A stretch of DNA of 11,411 bases from an uncultured archaeon (GTDB lineage: Archaea; Iainarchaeota; Iainarchaeia; Iainarchaeales; CSSED10-239), in contig CAZQEL010000022.1 in assembly GCA_964591795.1 (NCBI GenBank), positions 1 to 11,411 on the forward strand, read 5' to 3'. Below, one piece after another: positions 484-11,310 of the stretch. Positions within the stretch are counted from its first letter, which is position 1; the number at the start of each line of letters is the position of its first letter. A program made the position numbers and the translations under genes. The notes beneath the pieces are model-generated. The model saw only the letters and a list, made by a program, of their open reading frames with translations. It did not search any database and was not told the DNA's origin.

Positions 484-543
484 AAGAAAGTTTAAAAAAG
501 CCAAAAGGACCTTATTTTACAACAGTAATTAATTTAGTAAGTT

Positions 544-2289
544 ATGATAACCTATGAAGGCTTGATTTTATATTTACAACGCGATAGAATACTGATTAAT
601 ACTATGCGTAAAGATATAAAAGCAAAATTAAAAGATATGCCCGAACTACTTACTATTGGACAAGTAGCTGAAGTTTTTTCTATTCACCCTGATACTCTTA
701 GGAATTGGGATAAAGAAGGGATTTTAGTTCCTTTAAGGGTTGGAACAAGAAAAGACCGAAAATATAGACCTCAAGATATTCAAACCATTATGGATAAAAT
801 GGGTAGTGAACTTACACTTCCCCAACTAGAGCAATTCCTTTGGAAAAGTGCTGATATTCTTCGTGGGAAAATTGATGGTTCTGATTATAAGAAATATATT
901 TTCGGATTGTTATTCTTTAAAAGAATTAGTGATGTTTGGGATGAAGAATATAAAAAAACAAAAAAAGAATATGGGGATAAAAAAATCGCTCGTACTGACT
1001 ATAATCATCGCTTCCAAGTTCCTAGAGAATGTCGCTGGGCTGTTATAGAAGAACAAGCAGAAAATATCGGACAAAAACTTAATGAAATTTTTGATAAATT
1101 AACAAATGCTAATAGCCCAAAACTAGATAAAATTTTTAATGATTTAGATTTTGCTAATAAAGACCGTTTCCCCAACGAAACGACCCAACGATTAATAAAT
1201 CATTTTTCTCAATATAACTTTGGTGATACTTATATAAGTTCGGATTTGCTCGGAGATGCTTATGAATATCTAATTAAACAATTCGCTGCGGATGCTGGAA
1301 AAAAAGGTGGCGAATTCTACACACCACGAGAAGTTGAAAAAGTTATTGTTGAAATTTTAAAACCTCATAAAAAAGATCACATCTATGACCCTACTGTTGG
1401 ATCAGGAGGATTTCTCCTTGAGGCTTTTCATTATTTAAAAAATAAAGAAAATGAAACTGTGGCGAGAACACTTTATTTAAATGGGCAAGAGTTAAATATT
1501 GGAACTTTCGCAATTGCGAAAATAAATATGTTTTTGCATGGGTTAGACGGGGCTGATATTCAAAGAGGAGATACTTTAGCAAATCCACAATTCTTAAATC
1601 CAAATGGGAGTTTGAAAACTTTTGATATTGTTGTAGCAAATTTTCCATATTCTATTAAAGATTATGAATATAATATTCTAAAAATAAATAAATATGGAAG
1701 AATTGATGGATATGAAATGCCCCCTAAAAGAAATGCCGACTATGCTTTTATCTTACATATAATTAAATCAATGAATTCAAATGGAAGAGCAGGTGTAGTG
1801 GTTCCTCATGGAGTGCTTTTTAAAACTGATGCATCAAAAAGAATTCGAGAACAAATTTTAAAAAATGACTTAATTGAAGCTGTTATTGGTATGCCATCAA
1901 AATTATTTTATGGAGTTGGTATTCCTGTAGCGATTATTATTTTCAATAAAAATAAACCAAAAGAAAGAAAAAATAAAGTTTTGATTATTAATGCTGAAAA
2001 AGAATATTCAGAAGGTAAAAATCAAAACTCACTTCGTGTTCAAGATATCCAAAAGATTGTTAAAACTTATGATAATTATAAGGATGTAGAAAATTATGCT
2101 CGGGTGGTAGATTTAAAAGAAATTGAAGAGAATGAATTTAACTTGAATGTAAGTCGTTATATTGATAATGGAGAAAAAGAAGAAAAAATTGATGTTTCTG
2201 CTGTTAAGAAAGAATTGGTTAAACTAGAAAAAGAGCGAACAGAGATTGATAAAAAAGTCGAGGATTATTTAAAAGTATTAAAGTATTAA
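544..2289 (+). CDS. hsdM: Type I restriction-modification system methyltransferase subunit HsdM (N6-adenine) with an extra N-terminal MerR/excisionase-type HTH
   Basis: HsdM_N-like region 'LEQFLWKSADILRGKIDGSDYKKYIFGLLFFKRISDVWDEE'. 'GEFYTPREV' is present. The AdoMet motif I 'IYDPTVGSGGFL' lies at 1381..1416. The catalytic motif IV variant 'NFPY' lies at 1639..1650. 'YAFILHI' and 'GRAGVVVPHGVLF' are also present. The HTH 'LTIGQVAEVFSIHPDTLRNWDKEGILVPL...RKYRPQDIQTIM' spans about 640..800. Alternative starts are ATG 604 and ATG 637. Confidence 0.95.
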   Translation: MITYEGLILYLQRDRILINTMRKDIKAKLKDMPELLTIGQVAEVFSIHPDTLRNWDKEGILVPLRVGTRKDRKYRPQDIQTIMDKMGSELTLPQLEQFLWKSADILRGKIDGSDYKKYIFGLLFFKRISDVWDEEYKKTKKEYGDKKIARTDYNHRFQVPRECRWAVIEEQAENIGQKLNEIFDKLTNANSPKLDKIFNDLDFANKDRFPNETTQRLINHFSQYNFGDTYISSDLLGDAYEYLIKQFAADAGKKGGEFYTPREVEKVIVEILKPHKKDHIYDPTVGSGGFLLEAFHYLKNKENETVARTLYLNGQELNIGTFAIAKINMFLHGLDGADIQRGDTLANPQFLNPNGSLKTFDIVVANFPYSIKDYEYNILKINKYGRIDGYEMPPKRNADYAFILHIIKSMNSNGRAGVVVPHGVLFKTDASKRIREQILKNDLIEAVIGMPSKLFYGVGIPVAIIIFNKNKPKERKNKVLIINAEKEYSEGKNQNSLRVQDIQKIVKTYDNYKDVENYARVVDLKEIEENEFNLNVSRYIDNGEKEEKIDVSAVKKELVKLEKERTEIDKKVEDYLKVLKY

Positions 2290-2300
2290 AGTATTAAAGT
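2273..2300. repeat. Tandem octamer AAGTATTA, 3.5 copies, spanning the hsdM stop codon and the junction to the next gene
   Basis: Read directly: AAGTATTA at 2273-2280, 2281-2288 and 2289-2296, then AAGT at 2297-2300. The hsdM TAA is at 2287-2289 and the next ATG is at 2302. Confidence 0.9.
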
Positions 2301-2301
2301 T

Positions 2302-3009
2302 ATGAATAAATTATTTAAATTAAAAATAAATAAATCATCAGAATACTGGGCTTTTATGCTTTTGTTTTTTCTCAGTTTTTCCTGCCTATATTTTTTTAGT
2401 TTTAGACTAGATGATCCTTTTAGAACTGAGTTTTTGAATATTATTGAATATTTAGGGGCTATCTTAATTGCAATGGTTGCTGGGTATTTTGCTTACTCTC
2501 AATTTTTAGAAATACGTTTTGAAAAAATAAAAGAACAAGCTAACCTTAGTTTTAAAAGAGATATGTACGCTAGAGCGATAAATTTATATACAGAAGCTAT
2601 TTCCATCAGATCCGATGAGTTTCCTGTTTTTGCTGAATATACGGAAGTTTTGATTGCAATTTCTGATTTTGATAAATTTGATTTGATAGCTAAAGATTTA
2701 AAAAAATATGCAGTTGATAAAAGAGAACATTTGATTTGTTGCTACTTGATGTTTTCTAGGTTCATGTTGCAAGAAAATCTTGGTTTTGCTAAAAAACATA
2801 TACTTGAAACAATAGAATCTTATGAAAAAAATAAAAATATTTTTGTATTAGGTAATTGGGATTTTTCTGATATAAAAAGGACAGAAAATTATAAGTCTCT
2901 TCAAGGAGAAGCAAAAAAGATTTTTGATAATTATATAAAATTTGTAACAGGACAGTTGAAGAATGATTCGTTAAGTAAGTTTTTGAATGGCGATTACATT
3001 TTAAGTTAA
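2302..3009 (+). CDS. Hypothetical membrane protein with two N-terminal TM helices and a cytoplasmic TPR-like helical domain
   Basis: Hydrophobic segments are 'YWAFMLLFFLSFSCLYFFSF' (about 2344..2403) and 'IIEYLGAILIAMVAGYFAYSQF' (about 2440..2505). 'FKRDMYARAINLYTEAISIRSDEF' fits the TPR consensus pattern (Y..AI..Y..AI). It is a long ORF with no stops that fills the gap exactly, 12 nt after hsdM. Confidence 0.75.
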   Translation: MNKLFKLKINKSSEYWAFMLLFFLSFSCLYFFSFRLDDPFRTEFLNIIEYLGAILIAMVAGYFAYSQFLEIRFEKIKEQANLSFKRDMYARAINLYTEAISIRSDEFPVFAEYTEVLIAISDFDKFDLIAKDLKKYAVDKREHLICCYLMFSRFMLQENLGFAKKHILETIESYEKNKNIFVLGNWDFSDIKRTENYKSLQGEAKKIFDNYIKFVTGQLKNDSLSKFLNGDYILS

Positions 3010-3016
3010 TTTAAAA

Positions 3017-3307
3017 ATGAAAAATCAAGAATATTACAACAAAATATTTAATGAATACAAAGAATTAGAAGCTAAAACTTTTATTCCTGTTAATGATGTT
3101 GTTAAGGGTAAAAAAATAATAGGTGTTCATATTAAACCCGAAGATCTCTTTCGTCGAGATGAAGTTAGAGAAGAATTAAGAAAGGGTTTAAATTTTCTTT
3201 CTAATGAACAATTAGAATTTTTGTATGACGATAGTGATTCTTTATTGGTTTTAGAAGCGGTAAAAACTTTGGCTAATAGAGATTTAATAAATAACAATAT
3301 TAACTAA
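3017..3307 (+). CDS. Hypothetical small protein (96 aa), family not recognised
   Basis: The ORF starts 7 nt after the upstream stop and ends 1 nt before the next ATG, so it fits the operon packing. I recognise no motifs. Residue counts are about 18 acidic and 15 basic. Confidence 0.6.
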   Translation: MKNQEYYNKIFNEYKELEAKTFIPVNDVVKGKKIIGVHIKPEDLFRRDEVREELRKGLNFLSNEQLEFLYDDSDSLLVLEAVKTLANRDLINNNIN

Positions 3308-3308
3308 T

Positions 3309-4379
3309 ATGCCAACACTTTCAACAAGGTCAACTTCTAGAGAAACAATGGAAATGGATCCCATTGTATTAAGAGAAACAACTACAACTAGATTGACTTT
3401 TTATCCATGTTGGGTTAGTTCATCAAGTAACCCATTGAGAGGAGGTTTTAAATTTGAAAGAAAAAGCCCATTAGATACTTGGGAAGCTTTTGATTCTAAA
3501 CCGCTATCTAGTTTAAAAAAAGACGAAGCATATATTTTACCTTTAAAAGGCGACGAAATATCTTCTCTCTTGTTTAATTTAGAAAATATTAAAGAAATTC
3601 TTGAAAAGTACGGACATTCTTATGGTGAAAGAAATATTATTTTTAGTGAAAAAAATGCAGAAAATGTTTTATTACAAATAGGTGAAATAGATAATCGAGA
3701 TTTAGTTATTCAACAATTAAAAAAATTAGAAGAAAATAATTTTAAGAATATAAGTTCTCTCGTTGACATAACAAAATTAGACAAAATTATTGAAGAATTT
3801 GAGAAAAACTTAAATAATTCAGATGAAAGTTTCTGGCAAAACTTTTTTGAAGACAAAGATGGTGTTTGGGTTTTACAACAAATTTTTTCATTTCCTGTTC
3901 TTTTTTTGCAAGGAGAGGCATATGTTGGCGGAAAAAATACTAAAGGGCGTCAAGGAAGAGGCGGTGTTGCCACAGATTATTTATTTAAAAATCATTCAAA
4001 TGATAGTTTTGCTGTTGTAGAAATAAAAACTCCAAAAACCAAGTTAGTAAAAAATTATTTGTATAGAGGTGATTTTGAAGGAGAAACCAATTGTATCCAT
4101 GAATTAGAAAAAGATTTGTATGGAGGCGTTATTCAATTAGAAAATCAAATACATACAGCGATAGACAAATTTAAAGATGAATTAGGGGAAGATTTTAAGG
4201 AATTAAACATGATTGATCCTTGTGGCGTGTTATTAATTGGTAATAAAGAAGATTTAAATATTAGTCAGAAAAAAACTTTTAATTTGTTTAGAAAAACATT
4301 GGGGAAAAATTTAATTTATACCTTTGATGAACTTTTATTTAAAATTAAGCAATTTCGAACATTTTATAATGAAAACTAA
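3309..4379 (+). CDS. Shedu-like (SduA / DUF4263) PD-(D/E)xK nuclease-domain protein with an unrecognised N-terminal domain
   Basis: The C-terminal half reads 'ESFWQNFFEDKDGVWVLQQIF...GVATDYLF...FAVVEIKTPKTKL...GGVIQLENQIH...PCGVLLIGNKEDL...NLIYTFDELL'. The candidate catalytic residues are D (3975-3977) and ExK (E 4020-4022, K 4026-4028), followed by Q. A terminal 'iiG...TYDELL'-type motif is as I recall for DUF4263. The first 170 aa or so are unassigned. Alternative starts are ATG 3348 and ATG 3354. Confidence 0.7.
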   Translation: MPTLSTRSTSRETMEMDPIVLRETTTTRLTFYPCWVSSSSNPLRGGFKFERKSPLDTWEAFDSKPLSSLKKDEAYILPLKGDEISSLLFNLENIKEILEKYGHSYGERNIIFSEKNAENVLLQIGEIDNRDLVIQQLKKLEENNFKNISSLVDITKLDKIIEEFEKNLNNSDESFWQNFFEDKDGVWVLQQIFSFPVLFLQGEAYVGGKNTKGRQGRGGVATDYLFKNHSNDSFAVVEIKTPKTKLVKNYLYRGDFEGETNCIHELEKDLYGGVIQLENQIHTAIDKFKDELGEDFKELNMIDPCGVLLIGNKEDLNISQKKTFNLFRKTLGKNLIYTFDELLFKIKQFRTFYNEN

Positions 4380-5529
4380 CCAAATACAAAAGAATATTCC
4401 AAAAGGTTGGGGAGAAAAACAATTTAATGATTGTATTGTTTTACCTACAAAACTTAAAGGACTTAAAAAATCACAATATAAATTAAGTGGTAAATATCCT
4501 ATTTTCGATCAAGGTCAAAGCTACATAAGTGGATATACAGATAATAATGATTTTTTGAATGATAATTCTCCAGTAATATTGTTTGGGGATCACACAAGAA
4601 TTGTTAAATTAATAAAATCACCCTTTGTTTTAGGAGCTGATGGTACTAAAGTTTTTTGGGTAAACGAGAATATTGATATTGATTTCTTTTTTTATTCTTT
4701 ATTAAATACCGAAATACCGAACACTGGCTACAATAGACATTTTAAATTTCTAAAGGAGAAAAAGTTTTTAATTCCAGAAGATATAAACGAACAAAAACAA
4801 ATTGCGAAAATTTTGAAAACAGTTGATAAAGAAATGGAAAAAACTGACGAGATTATAGGGGGAACGGAAAAGTTGAAAAAAGGTTTGATGCAAAAACTTT
4901 TTGAGAAAAAAGAGGGGTGGAATGTATTGAAAATAAAAGATTCTCCGATTAAACTAATTGATGGCGATCGAGGTGTAAATTATCCGAAAGTCAGTGACTT
5001 TACTACTGGTGGTTATTGTCTTTTTCTGAGTAATAAGAATATAAAAAATGATGAATTTATTTTTTCAGATTCACAATTTATTTCTAAAGAAAAAGATGAG
5101 TTATTAAGAAAAGGAAGGCTTCAAAAAGAAGATGTTATTTTAACAACAAGAGGAACTGTTGGAAGTGTGGCTTTTTATGATAAAACCGTAAGTTTTCAGA
5201 ATATAAGAATAAATTCAGGGATGCTTATTTTAAGATCGTTTGACGGAATAGAACCTATATATTTATATCAATTATTGAAAAGTTCTTTATTAAAAAACAA
5301 ATTTAAGGAGATCGTTTCAGGATCTGCCCAACCCCAGCTCCCGATAAGAACACTTGAACAAGTTTTTATACCAATACCACCAGAAGGTGAGCAACAAAAA
5401 ATTGCAGAAATTCTTTCGGCTGTCGATGAAAAAATTTTAGTTAATAAAAAATTAAAAGAAAAACTAACCCAACTCAAAAAAGGTCTGTCGCAAGATCTTT
5501 TGAGTGGTAAAGTACGAACAAAAAAATGA
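4369..5529 (+). CDS. hsdS: Type I restriction-modification system specificity subunit HsdS (two target-recognition domains)
   Basis: The N-terminus 'MKTNQIQKNIPKGWGEKQFNDC' is typical for HsdS. TRD1 contains 'GKYPIFDQGQSYISGYTD...ILFGDHT'. TRD2 contains 'LIDGDRGVNYP...ILTTRGTVGSVAFYD'. There are two conserved helical spacers: 'EQKQIAKILKTVDKEMEKTDEIIGGTEKLKKGLMQKLF' from 4789 and 'EQQKIAEILSAVDEKILVNKKLKEKLTQLKKGLSQDLLSG' from 5389. I prefer ATG 4369 to the track start TTG 4324, because codons 4324-4368 overlap the previous gene and add a non-HsdS-like leader. Confidence 0.9.
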   Translation: MKTNQIQKNIPKGWGEKQFNDCIVLPTKLKGLKKSQYKLSGKYPIFDQGQSYISGYTDNNDFLNDNSPVILFGDHTRIVKLIKSPFVLGADGTKVFWVNENIDIDFFFYSLLNTEIPNTGYNRHFKFLKEKKFLIPEDINEQKQIAKILKTVDKEMEKTDEIIGGTEKLKKGLMQKLFEKKEGWNVLKIKDSPIKLIDGDRGVNYPKVSDFTTGGYCLFLSNKNIKNDEFIFSDSQFISKEKDELLRKGRLQKEDVILTTRGTVGSVAFYDKTVSFQNIRINSGMLILRSFDGIEPIYLYQLLKSSLLKNKFKEIVSGSAQPQLPIRTLEQVFIPIPPEGEQQKIAEILSAVDEKILVNKKLKEKLTQLKKGLSQDLLSGKVRTKK

Positions 5530-6986
5530 ATAATATATATATAAAATCAATGCCAGTCAATATGTTTAATGGGATTTTTAACATCACCGTTACTTTTGAT
5601 AATGGATTAAATATAATAAGTGGGGTAAATGGTACTGGAAAGACACAAATATTAAGGTTGCTTAAAGAGAATAAAGGGATTACTTCTACTGCAGAAAAAT
5701 CATCAGACCAACTTTCTATTTTTGCCATTAGTCCAAAAAGAAATACAGAGAAAGAAGCAATCGATAGTATCTTTCAACAAGTTCGAACACAAAACAAAAC
5801 AATCAAAACTTTTTTTGGGCAAATTAAGGGATTTCAAATTAAAGATTCTGGTTTTGAAAATTATCCATCCTTTGCAGAATTATTTATACAGGAATATGAT
5901 TCTTTAATGCAGGATGGTGTAACTGGTCATAAACTAGCAATAGAGAAAACTTCTGAAAGTTTCAATGAAGTTCTATCAAAAGTATTTCCTGAATACAAAA
6001 TTAAAGCCACATGGGTTTTAGGCGAAACTGATCTTTCTGGGAAGTTAGATTTAAAAATCAGTAAGTATTCAACAGAACCCATATCAATAGAATATCTCAG
6101 TACAGGAGAACGCGAAATGTTTGCCCTTCTGTTTGCTATCTTTGTGAGTAGGCACGAAGAAGATATTTATTTAATAGATGAGCCAGAAATTCACCTAAAT
6201 TGGGATTTAGAAAAAGGACTTTTCCAATTCTTTGATTGGTTTGGTACTAAATTTGAAAAACAAATAATTATTGTGACGCACTCCAGGATTATTTTTAAGA
6301 AAGAGTTTTATCCTAGAACCCAATTTTTAGTTTGGAAAAATAATCAGATAATTAGCCGTTCTGAAATAACTGATAAGCAAAAAGAATCAATAGCGGGTGA
6401 ATTGTCTGACTCGATTAGCATTTCAGATTTTTCTAAGACAACCTATTTTGTAGAGGATGAAACTCAAAAATTAATTATTAATTTTTTGGCAGAAAAATTT
6501 AATAAAACCGTATCTATAGTTGTTTGTGGCAATAAGTCAAACGTTAAATCAATGTACTCTTTATTATTAAAGGAACAAAGTGATCTTCTATATTTTTTGG
6601 TTGACGGAGACAATGAAGGAAATGGGATCGTAGATCCAAACTTTATTAGCTTAGGTAAATATTGCATAGAGAATTATTTATTAAATATATCAATATTATC
6701 GTCACTTCTTTCTAAAACCGAAGATCAAATAAAAATAATGCTAGTTGATTGTTTGAAAAAAATAAGCTCAAATAAACATTTTTTGGTTTATAAAAAACTT
6801 GCGGAAAATAGTAGCGACTTTCCTCTTGATGTTTTAGACACCTATAGCGGTAAGGATCTGTTAAAATGCTTTGCTTCTGATCTCAATAAAACAGTTCCGG
6901 AATTAACGAAAGAAATTCTTGAAAAGATTGCTCTAGAAGATAAGCTCGATGGAATTTTTTCAGAGATAATTCCCGGAATAAAATAA
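5526..6986 (+). CDS. Single-polypeptide fusion of an ABC/SMC-type ATPase and a TOPRIM (DUF4435-like) domain; a PARIS AriA-AriB-like or OLD-family candidate nuclease
   Basis: Walker A 'GVNGTGKT' lies at 5622..5645. The ABC signature-like 'LSTGEREMF' starts at 6096. Walker B 'IYLIDEPEIHL' has DE at 6177..6182. 'IIIVTHS' fits an H-loop. The C-terminal half has 'YFVEDETQ' (E at 6453-6455), 'VVCGNKSNV', 'FLVDGDNEG' (DxD at 6603..6611) and 'CIENYLL' (6663..6680). Together these fit the TOPRIM Glu plus DxD arrangement and the ENY motif I associate with DUF4435. Its ATG overlaps the hsdS stop (ATGA at 5526-5529). Confidence 0.75.
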   Translation: MNNIYIKSMPVNMFNGIFNITVTFDNGLNIISGVNGTGKTQILRLLKENKGITSTAEKSSDQLSIFAISPKRNTEKEAIDSIFQQVRTQNKTIKTFFGQIKGFQIKDSGFENYPSFAELFIQEYDSLMQDGVTGHKLAIEKTSESFNEVLSKVFPEYKIKATWVLGETDLSGKLDLKISKYSTEPISIEYLSTGEREMFALLFAIFVSRHEEDIYLIDEPEIHLNWDLEKGLFQFFDWFGTKFEKQIIIVTHSRIIFKKEFYPRTQFLVWKNNQIISRSEITDKQKESIAGELSDSISISDFSKTTYFVEDETQKLIINFLAEKFNKTVSIVVCGNKSNVKSMYSLLLKEQSDLLYFLVDGDNEGNGIVDPNFISLGKYCIENYLLNISILSSLLSKTEDQIKIMLVDCLKKISSNKHFLVYKKLAENSSDFPLDVLDTYSGKDLLKCFASDLNKTVPELTKEILEKIALEDKLDGIFSEIIPGIK

Positions 6987-6987
6987 T

Positions 6988-9894
6988 ATGAAATTCAACG
7001 AACAATACACAATAGAAAATTACATCATTAAGTTCTTAGGAAAAGAGCTTGATTATGAATACATAAAACCGAAGGATTTTGCAAAACTGCGGGAATTTGA
7101 GAATGAATATATTATTTCTTCTCTTTTACTTAATGCTATAAAAAAGATAAATAACATTTCTGATGACGAAGCAAAATCTATTTTAAGAGAAGTTAGGAAA
7201 ATAGATAATAATGAAGATTTTCTTAAAACTTTCCGTAATGGAATTAATCTTAAAGATTCCGAAACTGGAAAAATGAGAGATTATTTTATTATTGATTTCG
7301 ACAATCTTGGAAACAACCATTTTGTTATAACTAACCAATTTTATTTTGAAGGTAATTCTGAAAATATAAGAACGGATGTTTTGGTTTTTTTAAATGGTTT
7401 ACCTGTTGTAAATATTGAAGCTAAAAGTCCTACTGTCTCAAGTAGTGTAAATTATGCGAATGCTGTTGGGCAGATCAAAAGATATGAAAGAAACGCTTTT
7501 AAACTTTTCTGGCCAAATTGTTTTAATATTGCTACAGACGGATTGGAAACAGTTTATGGAGCAACCTATTCTCCTGCTCAGTATTTCTTAAAATGGAAAG
7601 AGGAAGAATTAAATGAGAAGTATGAAGAAGAACTTGAAATAACTTTATATGCTTTGCTATCGCGAGAGAGATTATTAGATATTATCAGAAATTTTATTCT
7701 TTTTGACAAAGATAAAGAACAAACCATAAAAAAAATTGCTCGTTATCAACAATTAAGAGCTACTAATAAAATCGTAGAGAGAGTTAGAAAAGGAGAAGAT
7801 AAGAGAGGTCTTATTTGGCATACTCAAGGATCAGGGAAATCACTGACTATGTTTTTTACTGCATGGAAATTACGATTTAATAAAAACTTAAAAAATCCAA
7901 AGATATTTATTTTGGTTGATAGAATTGATTTAGATGATCAAATTTATGAAACTTTTGTAAATTGTGGAGGTAAGAATGTTGTTCGGGTTAATTCTCGTCG
8001 TGATTTGGAGAAAAAAATAAAATCTTCAGAAAGAGGTATTTTTATCTCAACTATTCAAAAGTTTTCAGAATTAGGAAATGATGTTAAAAATCTTGATGAA
8101 AATATAATTGTGCTTTCTGATGAAGCTCACCGTGACAATGAAGGAATTTCAGCAATCAATTTAAGAAGCTCAATGGAAAATGCTTTTTTCTTTGGATTTA
8201 CAGGAACCCCTATTGATAGAACTACTTTAAATACTCATAGAAATTTTGGAGCTGAGGGAGAAAGATATCTTGATTACTATTCAATCAAACAAGCTATTGA
8301 TGATGGAACTACTCTTCCTGTTACATATGAAGCAAGATTATCTAAATTCTTTATTGATGAAGAAAAACTTGATAAACAGTTTGAAGAAATGACTGAAGGA
8401 CTTTCTGAAAAAGAAAAAGAGCAAATATCTAAAAAATACGGGAGAAAAGAAGCAATCGTAAAGCTTGATAAACGAATGGAAGCAATTGCTCAAGATATTA
8501 CTGAACATTATAAGTTATATGTTGAACCTGCTGGATTTAAGGCTCAGATTGTTTGTTATGATAGAGAGGCTACAGCTAAGTATAAGGAACTTTTAGATCA
8601 ACTTGTGTCAAAAGATTGGTCGGCTGTTATTTATTCTGCAGGTGATCCAAATACAAGTCCTGAAGAATTACAAAAATATAATACCACTAAAGCAAAAAGG
8701 GAAAAATTAATTAATGACTTTAAAGATCCAAATAGTCCTTTAAGGTTCTTATTGGTGTGCGATATGTTATTAACTGGTTTTGATGCTCCTATTGAACAGG
8801 TGATGTATTTAGATAAGCCTCTTTGGGATCATAATCTTTTACAAGCTATCGCTAGAACTAACAGAATCTATCCAAACAAAGGAGCTGGGAAAATTATTGA
8901 TTATTACGGAATAACTAAAAGTTTACATAAAGCTTTAGATTTTGATGAAAGTGAAGTTGATTCTGCAATGATTAATATAGATAAACTTAAAGAAGAATTC
9001 AAAGATATTCTATATGAAATTATGGGTATTTTTGTCAATGTAAATATTGAAGACCCTTCAATTGAGAATCTTCGTCGCTGTTTGAAAATATTTGCTGAAA
9101 ATAACGAAAAGCAAAAATTCTTTAGTAATAAATATGGACGACTAAAACTTTTATTTGAAGTCTTGTCTCCTGATCCTTTCCTTAAAGAATTTGTAAGAAA
9201 ATTTGAATGGTTAACTAGTGTTTATATTGCTTTCAGTAAAGAGTTTGGTGAAAGTGCTTATAGTTCAGAAGTCTTGGCTGAATATGGTGAGAAAGTTAAA
9301 AACTTAATTCAACAAAGAGTTGATTATGAAGGAATTACAAAAAATTTCAGAGAATTAAATATAAATGATTTGTATGTGATGGAAAGATTAAACAAAATGG
9401 ATGATGAAGAGAAAGCTTTGAATCTTGAAAAGATGCTTAAACAAGAAATTTCTTTAAATGTTGATACAAATCCTGCTTATAAAAAATTTAGTGAAAGATT
9501 ATCAGCAATCAGAAGAGAATTCGAGAAGAATCAAATTGATTTATCTGAAAGAATTAAACGGTATCAAGAATTACTTGAAGATATAAAAAATAAAGGTGAC
9601 GAAGCTAAAGAACTTGGATATTCATTAAAAGAATATGGTCTTTATGTAATTTCAGAAGAATTTATTAAAGGAGATAAAGATTTAATAAGAGATTTTATTC
9701 AAGAGATGTCTAAAAGAATTGAAAATGTACTTGATGCTGGGTGGCAAGAATCTTCTAAAAGAGATGAATTCTTGAAAGAAGTTAAGAGAATTATTCAAGA
9801 ATTAATATTAAAAGAATATAAAGAAAAAATAGAGGTTTCTGATTTCCATAAATATCTAAATCGTTTAGTGGATATTGTAATAAAAAAATTCTAA
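6988..9894 (+). CDS. hsdR: Type I restriction enzyme endonuclease/translocase subunit HsdR
   Basis: The N-terminal PD-(D/E)xK is 'RTDVLVFLNGLPVVNIEAKSP' (D 7375-7377, E 7417-7419, K 7423-7425). SF2 helicase motif I is 'HTQGSGKSLTM' (GK at 7834-7839). Motif II is 'DEAH' at 8119..8130. Motif III is 'GFTGTP'. Motif VI is 'QAIARTNR'. 'LLVCDMLLTGFDAP' is present. The C-terminal helical region 'LFEVLSPDPFL' is typical of the HsdR C-terminal domain. Confidence 0.95.
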   Translation: MKFNEQYTIENYIIKFLGKELDYEYIKPKDFAKLREFENEYIISSLLLNAIKKINNISDDEAKSILREVRKIDNNEDFLKTFRNGINLKDSETGKMRDYFIIDFDNLGNNHFVITNQFYFEGNSENIRTDVLVFLNGLPVVNIEAKSPTVSSSVNYANAVGQIKRYERNAFKLFWPNCFNIATDGLETVYGATYSPAQYFLKWKEEELNEKYEEELEITLYALLSRERLLDIIRNFILFDKDKEQTIKKIARYQQLRATNKIVERVRKGEDKRGLIWHTQGSGKSLTMFFTAWKLRFNKNLKNPKIFILVDRIDLDDQIYETFVNCGGKNVVRVNSRRDLEKKIKSSERGIFISTIQKFSELGNDVKNLDENIIVLSDEAHRDNEGISAINLRSSMENAFFFGFTGTPIDRTTLNTHRNFGAEGERYLDYYSIKQAIDDGTTLPVTYEARLSKFFIDEEKLDKQFEEMTEGLSEKEKEQISKKYGRKEAIVKLDKRMEAIAQDITEHYKLYVEPAGFKAQIVCYDREATAKYKELLDQLVSKDWSAVIYSAGDPNTSPEELQKYNTTKAKREKLINDFKDPNSPLRFLLVCDMLLTGFDAPIEQVMYLDKPLWDHNLLQAIARTNRIYPNKGAGKIIDYYGITKSLHKALDFDESEVDSAMINIDKLKEEFKDILYEIMGIFVNVNIEDPSIENLRRCLKIFAENNEKQKFFSNKYGRLKLLFEVLSPDPFLKEFVRKFEWLTSVYIAFSKEFGESAYSSEVLAEYGEKVKNLIQQRVDYEGITKNFRELNINDLYVMERLNKMDDEEKALNLEKMLKQEISLNVDTNPAYKKFSERLSAIRREFEKNQIDLSERIKRYQELLEDIKNKGDEAKELGYSLKEYGLYVISEEFIKGDKDLIRDFIQEMSKRIENVLDAGWQESSKRDEFLKEVKRIIQELILKEYKEKIEVSDFHKYLNRLVDIVIKKF

Positions 9895-9896
9895 TA

Positions 9897-10469
9897 ATGA
9901 AAAAAGATATTACTTTAAAAGATAAAAAAATCTCATACACCCTTAAAAAGAGCAAAAGGGCTCGAAGAATGAGGTTGGCGGTTTATTGTGATGGAAGTAT
10001 TGTTGTAACTACACCTCTTGGTTTAAGAGGAAATATTGTAGAAAAGTTTTTAACTGAAAAAACTCAATGGTTATTTGCTAAATTAAATTTTTTTAAACAA
10101 TTTGATGGAAAAGCAATTACAAAGTATAGCCATGAAGACTATTTGAAATTTAAAAAAGAAGCTTATATTTTGGCTGAAAAAAGAATTACTTATTTCAATA
10201 AAATATATAAATTAAAATACAACAAAATAAGTATCAAAAATCAAAAGACTCGTTGGGGTAGTTGCTCAAAAAAAGGTAATTTAAATTTTAATTATAAAAT
10301 AGCTCTTTTACCTCAAAAAATTTCTGATTACATTATTGTTCACGAACTATGTCATCTAAAAGAATTTAATCATTCAAGAAAATTCTGGAATCTAGTTGCT
10401 CAAGTGATGCCTGATTATTTAGAAATAAGAAAAGAACTTAAACAAAGTGGTTATCAATTTTATAAATAG
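9897..10469 (+). CDS. DUF45/YgjP-type (M48/SprT-like) zinc metallopeptidase-fold protein, coupled to hsdR
   Basis: 'TRWGSCSKKGNLNFNYKIALLPQKISDYIIVHELCHLKEFNHSRKFW' carries the HExxH motif 'HELCH' at 10341..10355 and a downstream 'NHS..FW'. This matches the YgjP/DUF45 signature as I remember it. The gene starts 2 nt after the hsdR stop. Confidence 0.85.
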   Translation: MKKDITLKDKKISYTLKKSKRARRMRLAVYCDGSIVVTTPLGLRGNIVEKFLTEKTQWLFAKLNFFKQFDGKAITKYSHEDYLKFKKEAYILAEKRITYFNKIYKLKYNKISIKNQKTRWGSCSKKGNLNFNYKIALLPQKISDYIIVHELCHLKEFNHSRKFWNLVAQVMPDYLEIRKELKQSGYQFYK

Positions 10470-10488
10470 TTTTAATTTTTGAGAATAA

Positions 10489-10599
10489 AAAGATGATCCA
10501 GAAGTGGAGATTGCTGATTTAGAAAAAGGGATTGATGAAATGGTTTATAAAATTTATGATTTAACGGATTAGGAAATAAAAATTGCTGAAGGTAATTAA
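10489..10599 (+). pseudogene. Relic of the extreme C-terminus of an N6-adenine methyltransferase or type IIG restriction-modification protein, with an internal stop
   Basis: Hand translation gives 'KDDPEVEIADLEKGIDEMVYKIYDLTD*EIKIAEGN*'. The internal TAG is at 10570-10572 and the terminal TAA is at 10597-10599. The '(I/L)D..VY.(I/L)Y.LT.EEI..(I/V)E' tail is a common C-terminal ending of Eco57I/PglX-like methyltransferase proteins. The frame is closed upstream by TAA 10486-10488, so only the tail survives. Confidence 0.5.
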
Positions 10600-10659
10600 A
10601 AATTGTAAAAAAACAAATTGAGGAGTTGATGGAAAGGACTGAGAAATAAATTAAACATT

Positions 10660-11310
10660 ATGGGTAAAGATGAAGTTAATAAAATAATAAAGCAAAAAAT
10701 AAACTCTACTATTGGAAATATTGGAAATGGTGTTTTGTATGATTTGTGTCAAAAATATCCATTACACGATAATCCAGATGTTATAAATGCAAAAATATGG
10801 CTTATCGGTAGAGCATATGCTGCAGCTATTGAGAGAAGAAAAAAATATCTTAATGATTTAAATGATGATTTTTACGAAAAACGAGTAATTCCAATGATTA
10901 TGAAATCAAGTATTGATCAAAGGATAGATAAAATTAGAGAATATAAATCAATCACAAAAGAAAATATTTTAAATATATTGAAAGTTCACAAATTTTTATC
11001 CGATTTGTTTTGTGATATTTCAGGACTTAAAAAAAGATCATTAGCATCAAAGTATTTGCATTTTCATTTTCCAGATTTATTTTTTATATATGATTCAAGA
11101 GCAAAAAATGCTCTGTCTAAAATTTCTGATAAATTATCATTAGAATATAAAAAGATTATTGACAGTAAAAAAGTGGATAAAAAATATGCGACATTTTTTT
11201 GTAAATCATATGAAAAAAAGAATGAATTTGAAGATATCCAGCCAGATATCTCTACTAGACAATTTGATTCAATATTAATAGTAATAGCTAATCAAGAACT
11301 AAGAAAATAA
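10660..11310 (+). CDS. Hypothetical protein (216 aa), family not confidently recognised
   Basis: This is a clean 216-codon ORF after a 190-nt gap. Its conserved-looking segments are 'AKIWLIGRAYAAAIERR' and 'LASKYLHFHFPDLFFIYDSRA'. The second resembles an 'SK-x-LHF..P..xPIxDS' motif that I vaguely associate with uncharacterised OGG-fold-annotated proteins. That association is unverified. Confidence 0.6.
   Translation: MGKDEVNKIIKQKINSTIGNIGNGVLYDLCQKYPLHDNPDVINAKIWLIGRAYAAAIERRKKYLNDLNDDFYEKRVIPMIMKSSIDQRIDKIREYKSITKENILNILKVHKFLSDLFCDISGLKKRSLASKYLHFHFPDLFFIYDSRAKNALSKISDKLSLEYKKIIDSKKVDKKYATFFCKSYEKKNEFEDIQPDISTRQFDSILIVIANQELRK

Follow-up and report, generated by a model that had tools for sequence, protein, structure and literature searches.

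An operon-like type I restriction-modification array with two cargo slots, occupied by Shedu and a fused ATPase-Toprim protein

Gene Organization of the Locus

The stretch of DNA analyzed here (referred to as the window) is the entire 11,411-nt metagenomic contig CAZQEL010000022.1 (assembly GCA_964591795.1), which has a G+C content of ~28%. It carries an hsd gene cluster for a type I restriction-modification (R-M) system, in which further genes are placed between hsdM and hsdS (slot 1) and between hsdS and hsdR (slot 2). According to the list of open reading frames (ORFs) and the sequence, eight ORFs, all on the + strand, occupy positions 544-10469 (544-2289, 2302-3009, 3017-3307, 3309-4379, 4369-5529, 5526-6986, 6988-9894, and 9897-10469). 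They are separated by junctions of 12, 7, 1, -11, -4, 1, and 2 nt, exactly as given in an earlier note on this DNA, which had been made from the letters alone and had proposed a multi-defense operon built on a type I R-M scaffold. Slot 1 holds a membrane-anchored TPR-like protein (TM-TPR, with two predicted membrane helices), a 96-aa ORF and the Shedu gene sduA; slot 2 holds a single gene encoding a fused ATPase-Toprim protein; and a ygjP-like gene follows hsdR.

The scaffold that the note had proposed is complete as judged from Pfam, PADLOC and NCBIfam matches, and HsdM, HsdS and HsdR are together predicted to constitute a complete type I R-M system. HsdM (604..2289, +; 561 aa from ATG 604) is a MerR-type helix-turn-helix (HTH) fused to a type I methyltransferase subunit, with Pfam matches to N6_Mtase (9.4e-106, 354 bits), HsdM_N (5.8e-26, 92 bits) and MerR_1 (3.4e-09) and a score of 251.9 bits against TIGR00497 (cut-off 242.75). 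Its start is most likely ATG 604 (MRKDIK...) and not 544, since the MRKDIK N-terminus is conserved in the related locus L099 and the DNA homology with L099 opens at 603; ATG 544 falls within a conserved non-coding 16-nt motif (543-558) that is described below. Of the motifs of gamma-class N6-adenine methyltransferases, motif I (FxGxG-like) is present in HsdM as DPTVGSGGF. Motif IV reads NFPY (residues 346-349 of 561 aa), and seven relatives, including the 82%-identical HsdM of L099, have NPPY or NPPF. Membership of MADS was considered and rejected: the NCBIfam models MAD2 and MAD5 gave 83.7 bits versus 720 and 37.9 bits versus 400, respectively, and type I models scored far higher.

The specificity subunit HsdS (4369..5529, +), with two target-recognition domains, matches Pfam Methylase_S (7.7e-29) in two stretches and PADLOC Specificity_I (9.1e-49) over residues 2-380. 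The start used for hsdS is ATG 4369, where the gene overlaps sduA by 11 nt; the longest possible frame opens at TTG 4324, and the start at 4369 is backed by an N-terminus (MKTNQ..QKNIP.GW) that is kept in six loci. The gene is a mosaic. Nucleotides 4376-4902, covering the first target-recognition domain, resemble L099, and nucleotides 4912-5507, covering the second, resemble L010 and L017, a pattern that on sequence grounds reflects the shuffling of domains usual for type I specificity subunits. HsdR (6988..9894, +) is the predicted restriction and translocase subunit (TIGR00348, 555.4 bits, cut-off 284.55) and matches the Pfam families HSDR_N, SWI2_SNF2, ResIII, T1R_D3-like, and T1RH-like_C. 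Both its N-terminal PD-(D/E)xK nuclease and its SF2 motor are present, as seen from the motifs D130...E144-A-K146, QxxxY at 162, GSGKS at 281, and DEAH at 378.

The last ORF (9897..10469, +) encodes a ygjP-like (DUF45) HExxH metallopeptidase (YgjP-like Pfam domain 6e-46, 157.5 bits, cut-off 26; HELCH at residues 149-153), in agreement with the note, which had allowed for protease activity among the additional genes and had listed one more gene after hsdR. The two internal insertion positions stood up to the comparison with related loci, but the ygjP-like gene is a constant accessory gene of the operon family and not cargo: a homologue lies directly 3' of hsdR in L003, L004, L007, L009, L010, and L014. 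Nothing specific on a role in type I R-M was found in the literature on YgjP.

Slot 1 Contains a Full-Length SduA That Is Linked to hsdS

The third gene of slot 1 (3309..4379, +) encodes a Shedu PD-(D/E)xK nuclease with an SduA N-terminal domain. The protein is a full-length SduA, in agreement with the 'Shedu-like' label of the note: both Pfam domains score above their cut-off of 27 (SduA_C 55.3 bits, SduA_N 53.1 bits), the PADLOC match is at 8.5e-69, and the profile of its family (alignment A1) matches the Shedu structure in PDB entry 8ti8 at 1.9e-82 over the full length. Among the 33 homologues in alignment A1, residues E173, D223, K240, and Q276 are invariant and E238 is nearly so. D223, E238, and K240 align to D249, E264, and K266 of the Bacillus cereus protein in 8ti8, and E173 and Q276 correspond by position to B. 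cereus E204 and Q295 (residue names as in 10.1101/2023.08.10.552793, with which the numbering of 8ti8 agrees).

Eight of the eleven independent loci of this SduA clade have sduA inside an hsd operon, between hsdM and hsdS (the window, L003, L004/5/6, L007, L009, L010, L014, and the decayed L012), and the type I operons that enclose sduA end in hsdR followed by ygjP. The SduA homologues come from metagenome-assembled genomes (MAGs) with the source names Parcubacteria, Saccharibacteria, and Peregrinibacteria. The names of MAGs with homologues and the low G+C content of the window point, indirectly, to a probable ultra-small, CPR-like bacterium as its host; the assembly itself is classified in the archaeal lineage Iainarchaeota. 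The 11-nt overlap between sduA and hsdS (ATGAAAnnTAA) is the same in six loci (the window, L004, L007, L009, L010, and L014). Because the same overlap recurs in six loci and eight of eleven loci lie inside hsd operons, the sduA-hsdS linkage is old and not an assembly artefact. The remaining three are not in hsd operons, in keeping with an autonomous SduA. At two loci (L003 11052-11909 and L008 11052-11912) a ~285-aa protein, with a weak Mrr_cat match in L003, follows sduA in place of hsdS with a -8 overlap. An ATG lies within the last sduA codons (..TATGAATAG) in both, so that the 3' end of sduA supplies the start codon for the next gene. In L012, a complete Saccharibacteria chromosome, positions 8035-15281 hold decayed versions of hsdM (208 aa), sduA (295 aa), and hsdR (426 aa).

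Slot 1 Also Contains a Membrane-Anchored TPR-Like Protein and a Small Orphan ORF

The first gene of slot 1 (2302..3009, +) encodes a 235-aa protein of an unannotated family, which was analyzed with an AlphaFold2 model and Foldseek. It has no match in Pfam, NCBIfam or PADLOC (PADLOC-DB v2.0.0), and an exhaustive search returned 130 representatives of the family at E ≤ 1e-3. The model (predicted local distance difference test score, pLDDT, 93.3) begins with two long helices and continues into a helical-repeat domain, and Foldseek gave weak, generic TPR matches only (best 6e-3). As modeled, the protein shows a two-helix membrane hairpin and a TPR-like repeat domain. In three of the six contexts seen (the window and L102-L106) the gene occupies the hsdM-hsdS position, L103 and L104 being the two besides the window, and in L105 a homologue is found on a small Rep-encoding element. 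The family is therefore a candidate accessory or defense gene, and its recurrence as hsd cargo was overlooked by the earlier note. Between this gene and sduA lies a 96-aa open frame (3017..3307, +) with junctions of 7 nt and 1 nt, for which no match was found in Pfam, NCBIfam or PADLOC, or in plasmid and phage records.

Slot 2 Contains a Compact Fused ATPase-Toprim Protein

The gene in slot 2 (5526..6986, +) encodes a 486-aa protein in which an ABC-ATPase is fused to a putative DUF4435-type Toprim nuclease, an AriAB/PARIS-like, OLD-family architecture. Its start is backed by an N-terminus (xxNxYIxS) that is kept across the family alignment (A2). Pfam matches are to AAA_21 and AAA_15, and the best curated match is PADLOC AriAB (9.2e-31), confined to model positions 260-539 of 694, so that the protein does not match the curated PARIS model over its full length. 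Among solved structures, AriA is the best relative of the ATPase half (profile A2 versus PDB, 1.1e-15); the alignment is limited to the N-terminal 47 residues and residues 122-251, and the ~250-residue insert of AriA between Walker A and the signature motif has no counterpart. The AriB chain was not matched by profile A2. DUF4435 (PF14491) was detected in 13 of 36 family members (best 1.6e-7), and OLD-like_TOPRIM (PF20469) in one of 36 at 0.008, so that this domain does not characterize the family.

The AlphaFold2 model of the protein (pLDDT 86.8) has Thermus OLD (6p74) as its top Foldseek match, at 8.4e-9 over 565 columns, and GajA matches too. The TM-scores are low (0.2-0.3), indicating a different domain arrangement. 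Invariant or nearly so in alignment A2 are Walker A (G33-T40), the signature motif, Walker B (D218/E219), H252 of the H-loop, and the acidic residues E310/D311 and D360/D362 (the E and DxD of the Toprim domain), which would bind metal. The single chain thus starts with an ABC ATPase and ends with a Toprim domain, as in the OLD family. The fused ABC-ATPase/Toprim nature suspected in the note ('PARIS/OLD-like') is borne out by the matches to PADLOC AriAB, to AriA and to OLD 6p74. Since the long insert of AriA is absent, we label the protein AriAB/OLD-like and not a proven member of PARIS. No PrrC model was present among the 25 best PADLOC hits (67 families matched); the C-terminal half is Toprim/DUF4435-like and is not a PrrC anticodon-nuclease domain. 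Plasmid and phage databases gave a single weak match.

We examined 29 loci of the ATPase-Toprim family, a sample that was not drawn to measure enrichment. The gene lies between hsdS and hsdR in the window, L017, and L099. Homologues are present, with gaps of only a few nucleotides, inside type III mod-res pairs (L022, L036, L100/L101), inside type IIB/G-like pairs of a fused RM protein and an S subunit (L023, L032), and between GmrSD, a type IV enzyme, and DUF2779 (L035). All two-sided tight couplings (gaps of at most ~30 nt) are R-M contexts. About two-thirds of the loci lie outside R-M systems, where the gene stands alone or near a serine recombinase, an HTH gene, PFK, Vsr, a transposase, or an SF1 helicase-nuclease. 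The occurrence of both stand-alone and embedded loci suggests that the family is autonomous, with a marked tendency toward R-M operons.

Related Operons Exchange Cargo at Gene Boundaries

By sequence comparison the window operon belongs to a family of hsd operons with two cargo slots, found mostly in uncultured genomes resembling the candidate phyla radiation (CPR)/Patescibacteria. In the relatives compared, HsdM is 68-82% and HsdR 66-79% identical to the window proteins, and the contents of the slots differ. In the window, the TM-TPR gene, the 96-aa ORF and sduA are combined with the ATPase-Toprim gene. L099 has Bro-N and a 188-aa protein of unknown function in slot 1 and an ATPase-Toprim gene in slot 2; L104 has a TM-TPR gene in slot 1 and a 342-aa protein with a weak SIR2_2 match in slot 2; and L010 has RhuM and sduA in slot 1 and DUF3800 in slot 2. 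Slot 2 contains an ATPase-Toprim gene in L017 and is vacant in L004. NYN and Mrr-like genes are also among the cargo swapped in related operons.

At the DNA level, collinearity with L099 breaks at 2305, just beyond the hsdM stop, and restarts at 4376, at the start of hsdS, from where it continues through the ATPase-Toprim gene and hsdR. These break-points indicate that cargo is exchanged as cassettes bounded by gene junctions. In the window the modules are identifiable and intact; in the operons compared the scaffold and most junctions recur, and cassettes have been swapped at gene boundaries. Direct or inverted repeats bounding the cassettes were sought, and only chance-like A+T-rich matches were obtained. 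An 'empty' hsdMSR operon with both slots vacant was not found in the searches, all of which were seeded with cargo proteins; L099 is a relative without sduA.

The closest full-length relative bearing sduA is L010 (HsdM 68%, HsdR 66%). Its contig is binned as Gammaproteobacteria and carries a heliorhodopsin gene downstream, so that either the operon was transferred horizontally or the contig was mis-binned.

Expression Signals and a Conserved Motif Upstream of hsdM

We calculated duplex energies between the 18 nt upstream of each start and a generic anti-Shine-Dalgarno sequence. None of the eight starts has a Shine-Dalgarno sequence: the values range from +2.5 to -3.5 kcal/mol, and none reaches -4 kcal/mol. 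The best value is no better than the background in the window (mean -1.6 kcal/mol, with 16% of positions at -4 or lower), in agreement with the note. Terminator-like sites occur at chance level (3 versus 2.6 ± 1.9 in shuffled sequences), in line with the note, which had found no internal terminator hairpins by eye; the two on the + strand, at 6139 and 6625, are weak and both lie within the ATPase-Toprim ORF. Promoter-like sites are not in excess either (51 versus 60.5 ± 7.9 in shuffles). Nothing in these scans argues for internal transcription units, which such scans do not rule out. RNA elements and tRNA genes were looked for in the window and none was found. A consensus scan gave a sigma-70-like promoter candidate (TTGATT-17-TAGAAT; 562..590, +) that ends ~14 nt before ATG 604. 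It is a match to the sigma-70 consensus, which may not be that of the host; L099 shows TTGACA at the aligned position.

The 16-nt motif TATGATAACCTATGAA (543..558, +) lies at the 5' edge of the operon and consists of two CTATGAA half-sites 10 nt, or one helical turn, apart. Exact matches to TATGAnAAnCTATGAA occur once each in the window, L099 (111-126), and L010 (346-361). L104 carries the motif as well, at about position 200, and there an extra gene of 244 aa lies between it and hsdM. Each of the four operons whose HsdM has a fused MerR-type HTH therefore shows CTATGAA-N3-CTATGAA once at its 5' edge, and this is the sole conserved block in otherwise diverged upstream DNA. Judged from its position and conservation, the motif may be a candidate operator for autoregulation through the HTH fused to HsdM. 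The fusion and the motif were both overlooked by the earlier note.

Flanking Sequences

Downstream of ygjP, positions 10480-10602 encode the C-terminal remnant of an R-M/methyltransferase-type gene (DDPEVEIADLEKGIDEMVYKIYDLTD*EIKIAEGN*) with an in-frame TAG. The remnant suggests that the hsd operon lies next to, or inside, what is left of an older R-M gene. It is followed by a 216-aa ORF (10660-11310) without a match in Pfam, NCBIfam or PADLOC, which starts 190 nt downstream of ygjP, the remnant included. On the other side, the best that the 37-483 ORF shows is a match below threshold to the zinc ribbon of large serine recombinases (22.2 bits versus a cut-off of 25.3). On the basis of this sub-threshold match only, it looks like the 3' fragment of a recombinase gene. 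In L097 a full-length serine recombinase adjoins a stand-alone homologue of the ATPase-Toprim gene. The two recombinase observations hint at a mobile-element context.

A Proposed Layered Defense Operon and Alternative Explanations

We consider it likely that the window carries one operon-like array in which a complete type I R-M system and the contents of two cargo slots, Shedu and the ATPase-Toprim protein, provide layered defense. All eight genes would share one transcript that begins at a promoter shortly before 604 and, as the junctions lack Shine-Dalgarno sequences, translation would proceed through termination-reinitiation at successive junctions. From the junctions it is reasonable to infer one transcript, coupled translation and a coupled stoichiometry. 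As a first layer, HsdMSR would restrict unmethylated DNA. SduA would be a normally auto-inhibited DNA nuclease, possibly acting on DNA ends from infection or restriction. The ATPase-Toprim protein would be an abortive back-up, of which the ATPase would sense an anti-restriction protein or the loss of R-M and the Toprim domain would then cut nucleic acid, probably tRNA by analogy with AriB. The cargo would consist of self-contained modules, to which embedding would confer linkage and co-regulation, not an obligatory complex.

Several points weigh against this interpretation. Co-transcription and translational coupling are deduced solely from the spacing of the genes. Methyltransferase activity of HsdM is not assured, because motif IV reads NFPY in place of NPPY. 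The window ATPase-Toprim protein has no match to Pfam DUF4435 at E ≤ 0.01 and, with the ~250-residue insert absent and DUF4435 below threshold, the trigger and the tRNA target of PARIS are a weak analogy. The trigger of B. cereus-type Shedu is still unsettled in the literature. The 96-aa ORF is unproven as a gene, as no homologue was found.

The hsd operon may instead act as a 'genomic sink' that tolerates insertions at its junctions, so that the cargo gains linkage and expression without functional interplay or selected stoichiometry, an option that has been discussed by Payne et al. (10.1101/2024.01.29.577857). The replacement of cargo cassettes at exact gene boundaries among close relatives agrees with such hitch-hiking, as do the mixed repertoire (Bro-N, RhuM, NYN, DUF3800, Mrr-like, and TM-TPR) and the presence of cargo families elsewhere, including the small Rep-encoding element of L105. 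Yet the sduA-hsdS overlap is kept at the nucleotide level although the SduA proteins are only ~50-55% identical, which argues for long-term co-inheritance over frequent random insertion, and the ATPase-Toprim family shows a positional preference within three kinds of R-M. We therefore regard pure hitch-hiking as somewhat unlikely. It is very improbable that the gene order is an assembly artefact or that the genes are pseudogenes of a decaying locus. The window is a single metagenomic contig, seen once, its flanks contain gene remnants (the recombinase fragment at 37-483 and the methylase-type remnant at 10480-10602), and HsdM motif IV is atypical. However, all eight ORFs are full length with intact catalytic residues, the motif IV variant excepted, and they bear little resemblance to L012, a relative in real decay, where hsdM and hsdR are broken into fragments and sduA is cut short. 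Moreover, independent assemblies show five of the seven junctions again, all but the two on either side of the 96-aa ORF. The recurrence of hsdM with TM-TPR, sduA with hsdS, hsdS with the ATPase gene and hsdR, and hsdR with ygjP largely rules out a chimera and answers the concern of the note that the gene order might be a one-off.

A different role for the slot 2 protein would be that of a physical guardian of the PrrC type, which docks on the R-M enzyme and stays latent until a phage inhibitor disables that enzyme. Docking would explain the insertion between a methylase or specificity gene and a restriction gene: every tightly coupled context of the family is an R-M gene pair (type I, III, or IIB/G-like) or is adjacent to GmrSD, and the protein matches PrrC in position and in the logic of an N-terminal ABC-ATPase (PMC12707154; 10.1101/2024.01.29.577857). 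On the other hand, most sampled family members stand alone or adjoin unrelated genes, from which it follows that the protein can remain inactive when no R-M system accompanies it. The R-M types with which it is associated have no structural relationship to one another, contrary to a single docking surface, and the 29-locus sample gives no measure of enrichment. A physical PrrC-like complex is possible but is disfavored by the many stand-alone members, and we judge this explanation to be unlikely. In a broader version, the compact ATPase-Toprim family would be a PrrC-like, position-specific guardian of type I, III, and IIB/G-like R-M, recruited repeatedly between the modification or specificity gene and the restriction gene to sense whether the R-M complex is intact or has been bound by an inhibitor, and the HsdM fused to a MerR-type HTH would autoregulate the operon via CTATGAA-N3-CTATGAA. 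This combined proposal is tentative and, as a whole, improbable.

Comparison With Known Defense Systems

The earlier note regarded the presence of a Shedu-like and a PARIS/OLD-like module inside one hsd operon as unusual. This view did not survive the comparison with related loci (eight of eleven in the SduA clade) and with the literature. Of 5,499 Shedu genes, 602 are located inside type I-IV R-M systems, and the nuclease activity of B. cereus Shedu is normally auto-inhibited (Gu et al., 10.1101/2023.08.10.552793). Type I R-M, BREX, DISARM, and Hma often hold embedded defense genes, whose orientation matches in 96.7% of cases, and embedded PARIS and Gabija have been proposed as back-ups (Payne et al., 10.1101/2024.01.29.577857). 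Given the published counts of Shedu in R-M systems, the embedding in type I systems and the PrrC and PARIS guardians, the arrangement is of a type already described, and none of the leads obtained here overturns current understanding. The locus is a well-delimited natural case of modular cargo exchange, in which four to five related operons share a constant scaffold and shuffle the cargo of two slots, and it extends the published picture of embedded defense to uncultured, small-genome lineages in which little defense biology has been tested. The leads are a recurrent unannotated membrane-TPR family, a minimal AriAB/OLD-like nuclease in three kinds of R-M, and an HsdM to which a DNA-binding domain is fused, together with its candidate operator. 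As far as we found, four features are undescribed: the fixed sduA-hsdS overlap in this SduA clade, the repeated occurrence of the TM-TPR family as cargo of hsd operons, the fusion of a MerR-type HTH to HsdM with the conserved CTATGAA-N3-CTATGAA motif in four operons, and the NFPY sequence of HsdM motif IV, the last in the window contig only.

The closest general parallel is the 'guilt-by-embedding' described by Payne et al. (10.1101/2024.01.29.577857), with which the window shares same-orientation nesting between subunit genes, ABC-ATPase/Toprim modules, which are frequent cargo, and the back-up rationale. It differs in coming from an uncultured low-G+C lineage, in having cargo at two slots simultaneously and in its TM-TPR cargo, which is absent from PADLOC-DB v2.0.0. 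The same study validated HEC-04 as a single-chain ABC-ATPase/Toprim system, whereas the window protein matches AriAB far better than the HEC and PDC models listed. As for Shedu, the window SduA shares with 8ti8 the N-terminal domain, the linker, the PD-(D/E)xK nuclease and all four catalytic motifs; the difference lies in the genomic setting, as the window clade fixes sduA between hsdM and hsdS, with the 11-nt overlap in six loci.

PARIS responds to Ocr or Stp, and its AriB subunit cuts tRNA-Lys, as established for E. coli PARIS only (PMC11464382; PMC12707154). Because it senses anti-restriction proteins, PARIS is conceptually tied to R-M. The window protein resembles PARIS (Rousset 2022, PMC9122126; PMC11464382) in combining an ABC ATPase closest, among solved structures, to AriA and a putative DUF4435-type Toprim in one chain, as in the fused ariAB clades that have been described (Burman et al. 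2024, PMC11464382). It differs in its size of 486 aa, in being without the large insert of AriA, in the restriction of the AriAB match to positions 260-539 of 694 and in scoring below the DUF4435 threshold. The gene for PrrC lies between hsdS and hsdR, and the protein becomes active upon inhibition of EcoprrI (PMC12707154; 10.1101/2024.01.29.577857). PrrC, regarded as a guardian of the surrounding R-M system, shares with the window protein the hsdS-hsdR position, an ABC-type ATPase at the N-terminus and a nuclease at the C-terminus. The effector of the window protein, however, is a Toprim domain, and two-thirds of its family lie outside R-M whereas PrrC is almost always embedded. Finally, a type I R-M island that has DarTG2 embedded in it is regulated by RptR and repressed via direct repeats in its promoter (Zhang et al., PMC12255303). 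Both this island and the window comprise a type I R-M operon with embedded defense cargo, and the single upstream promoter of the island bears direct-repeat operators. The window differs in that it has no separate regulator gene, the MerR-type HTH being fused to HsdM itself, and in that its candidate operator consists of two copies of CTATGAA and not of TAGCTA.

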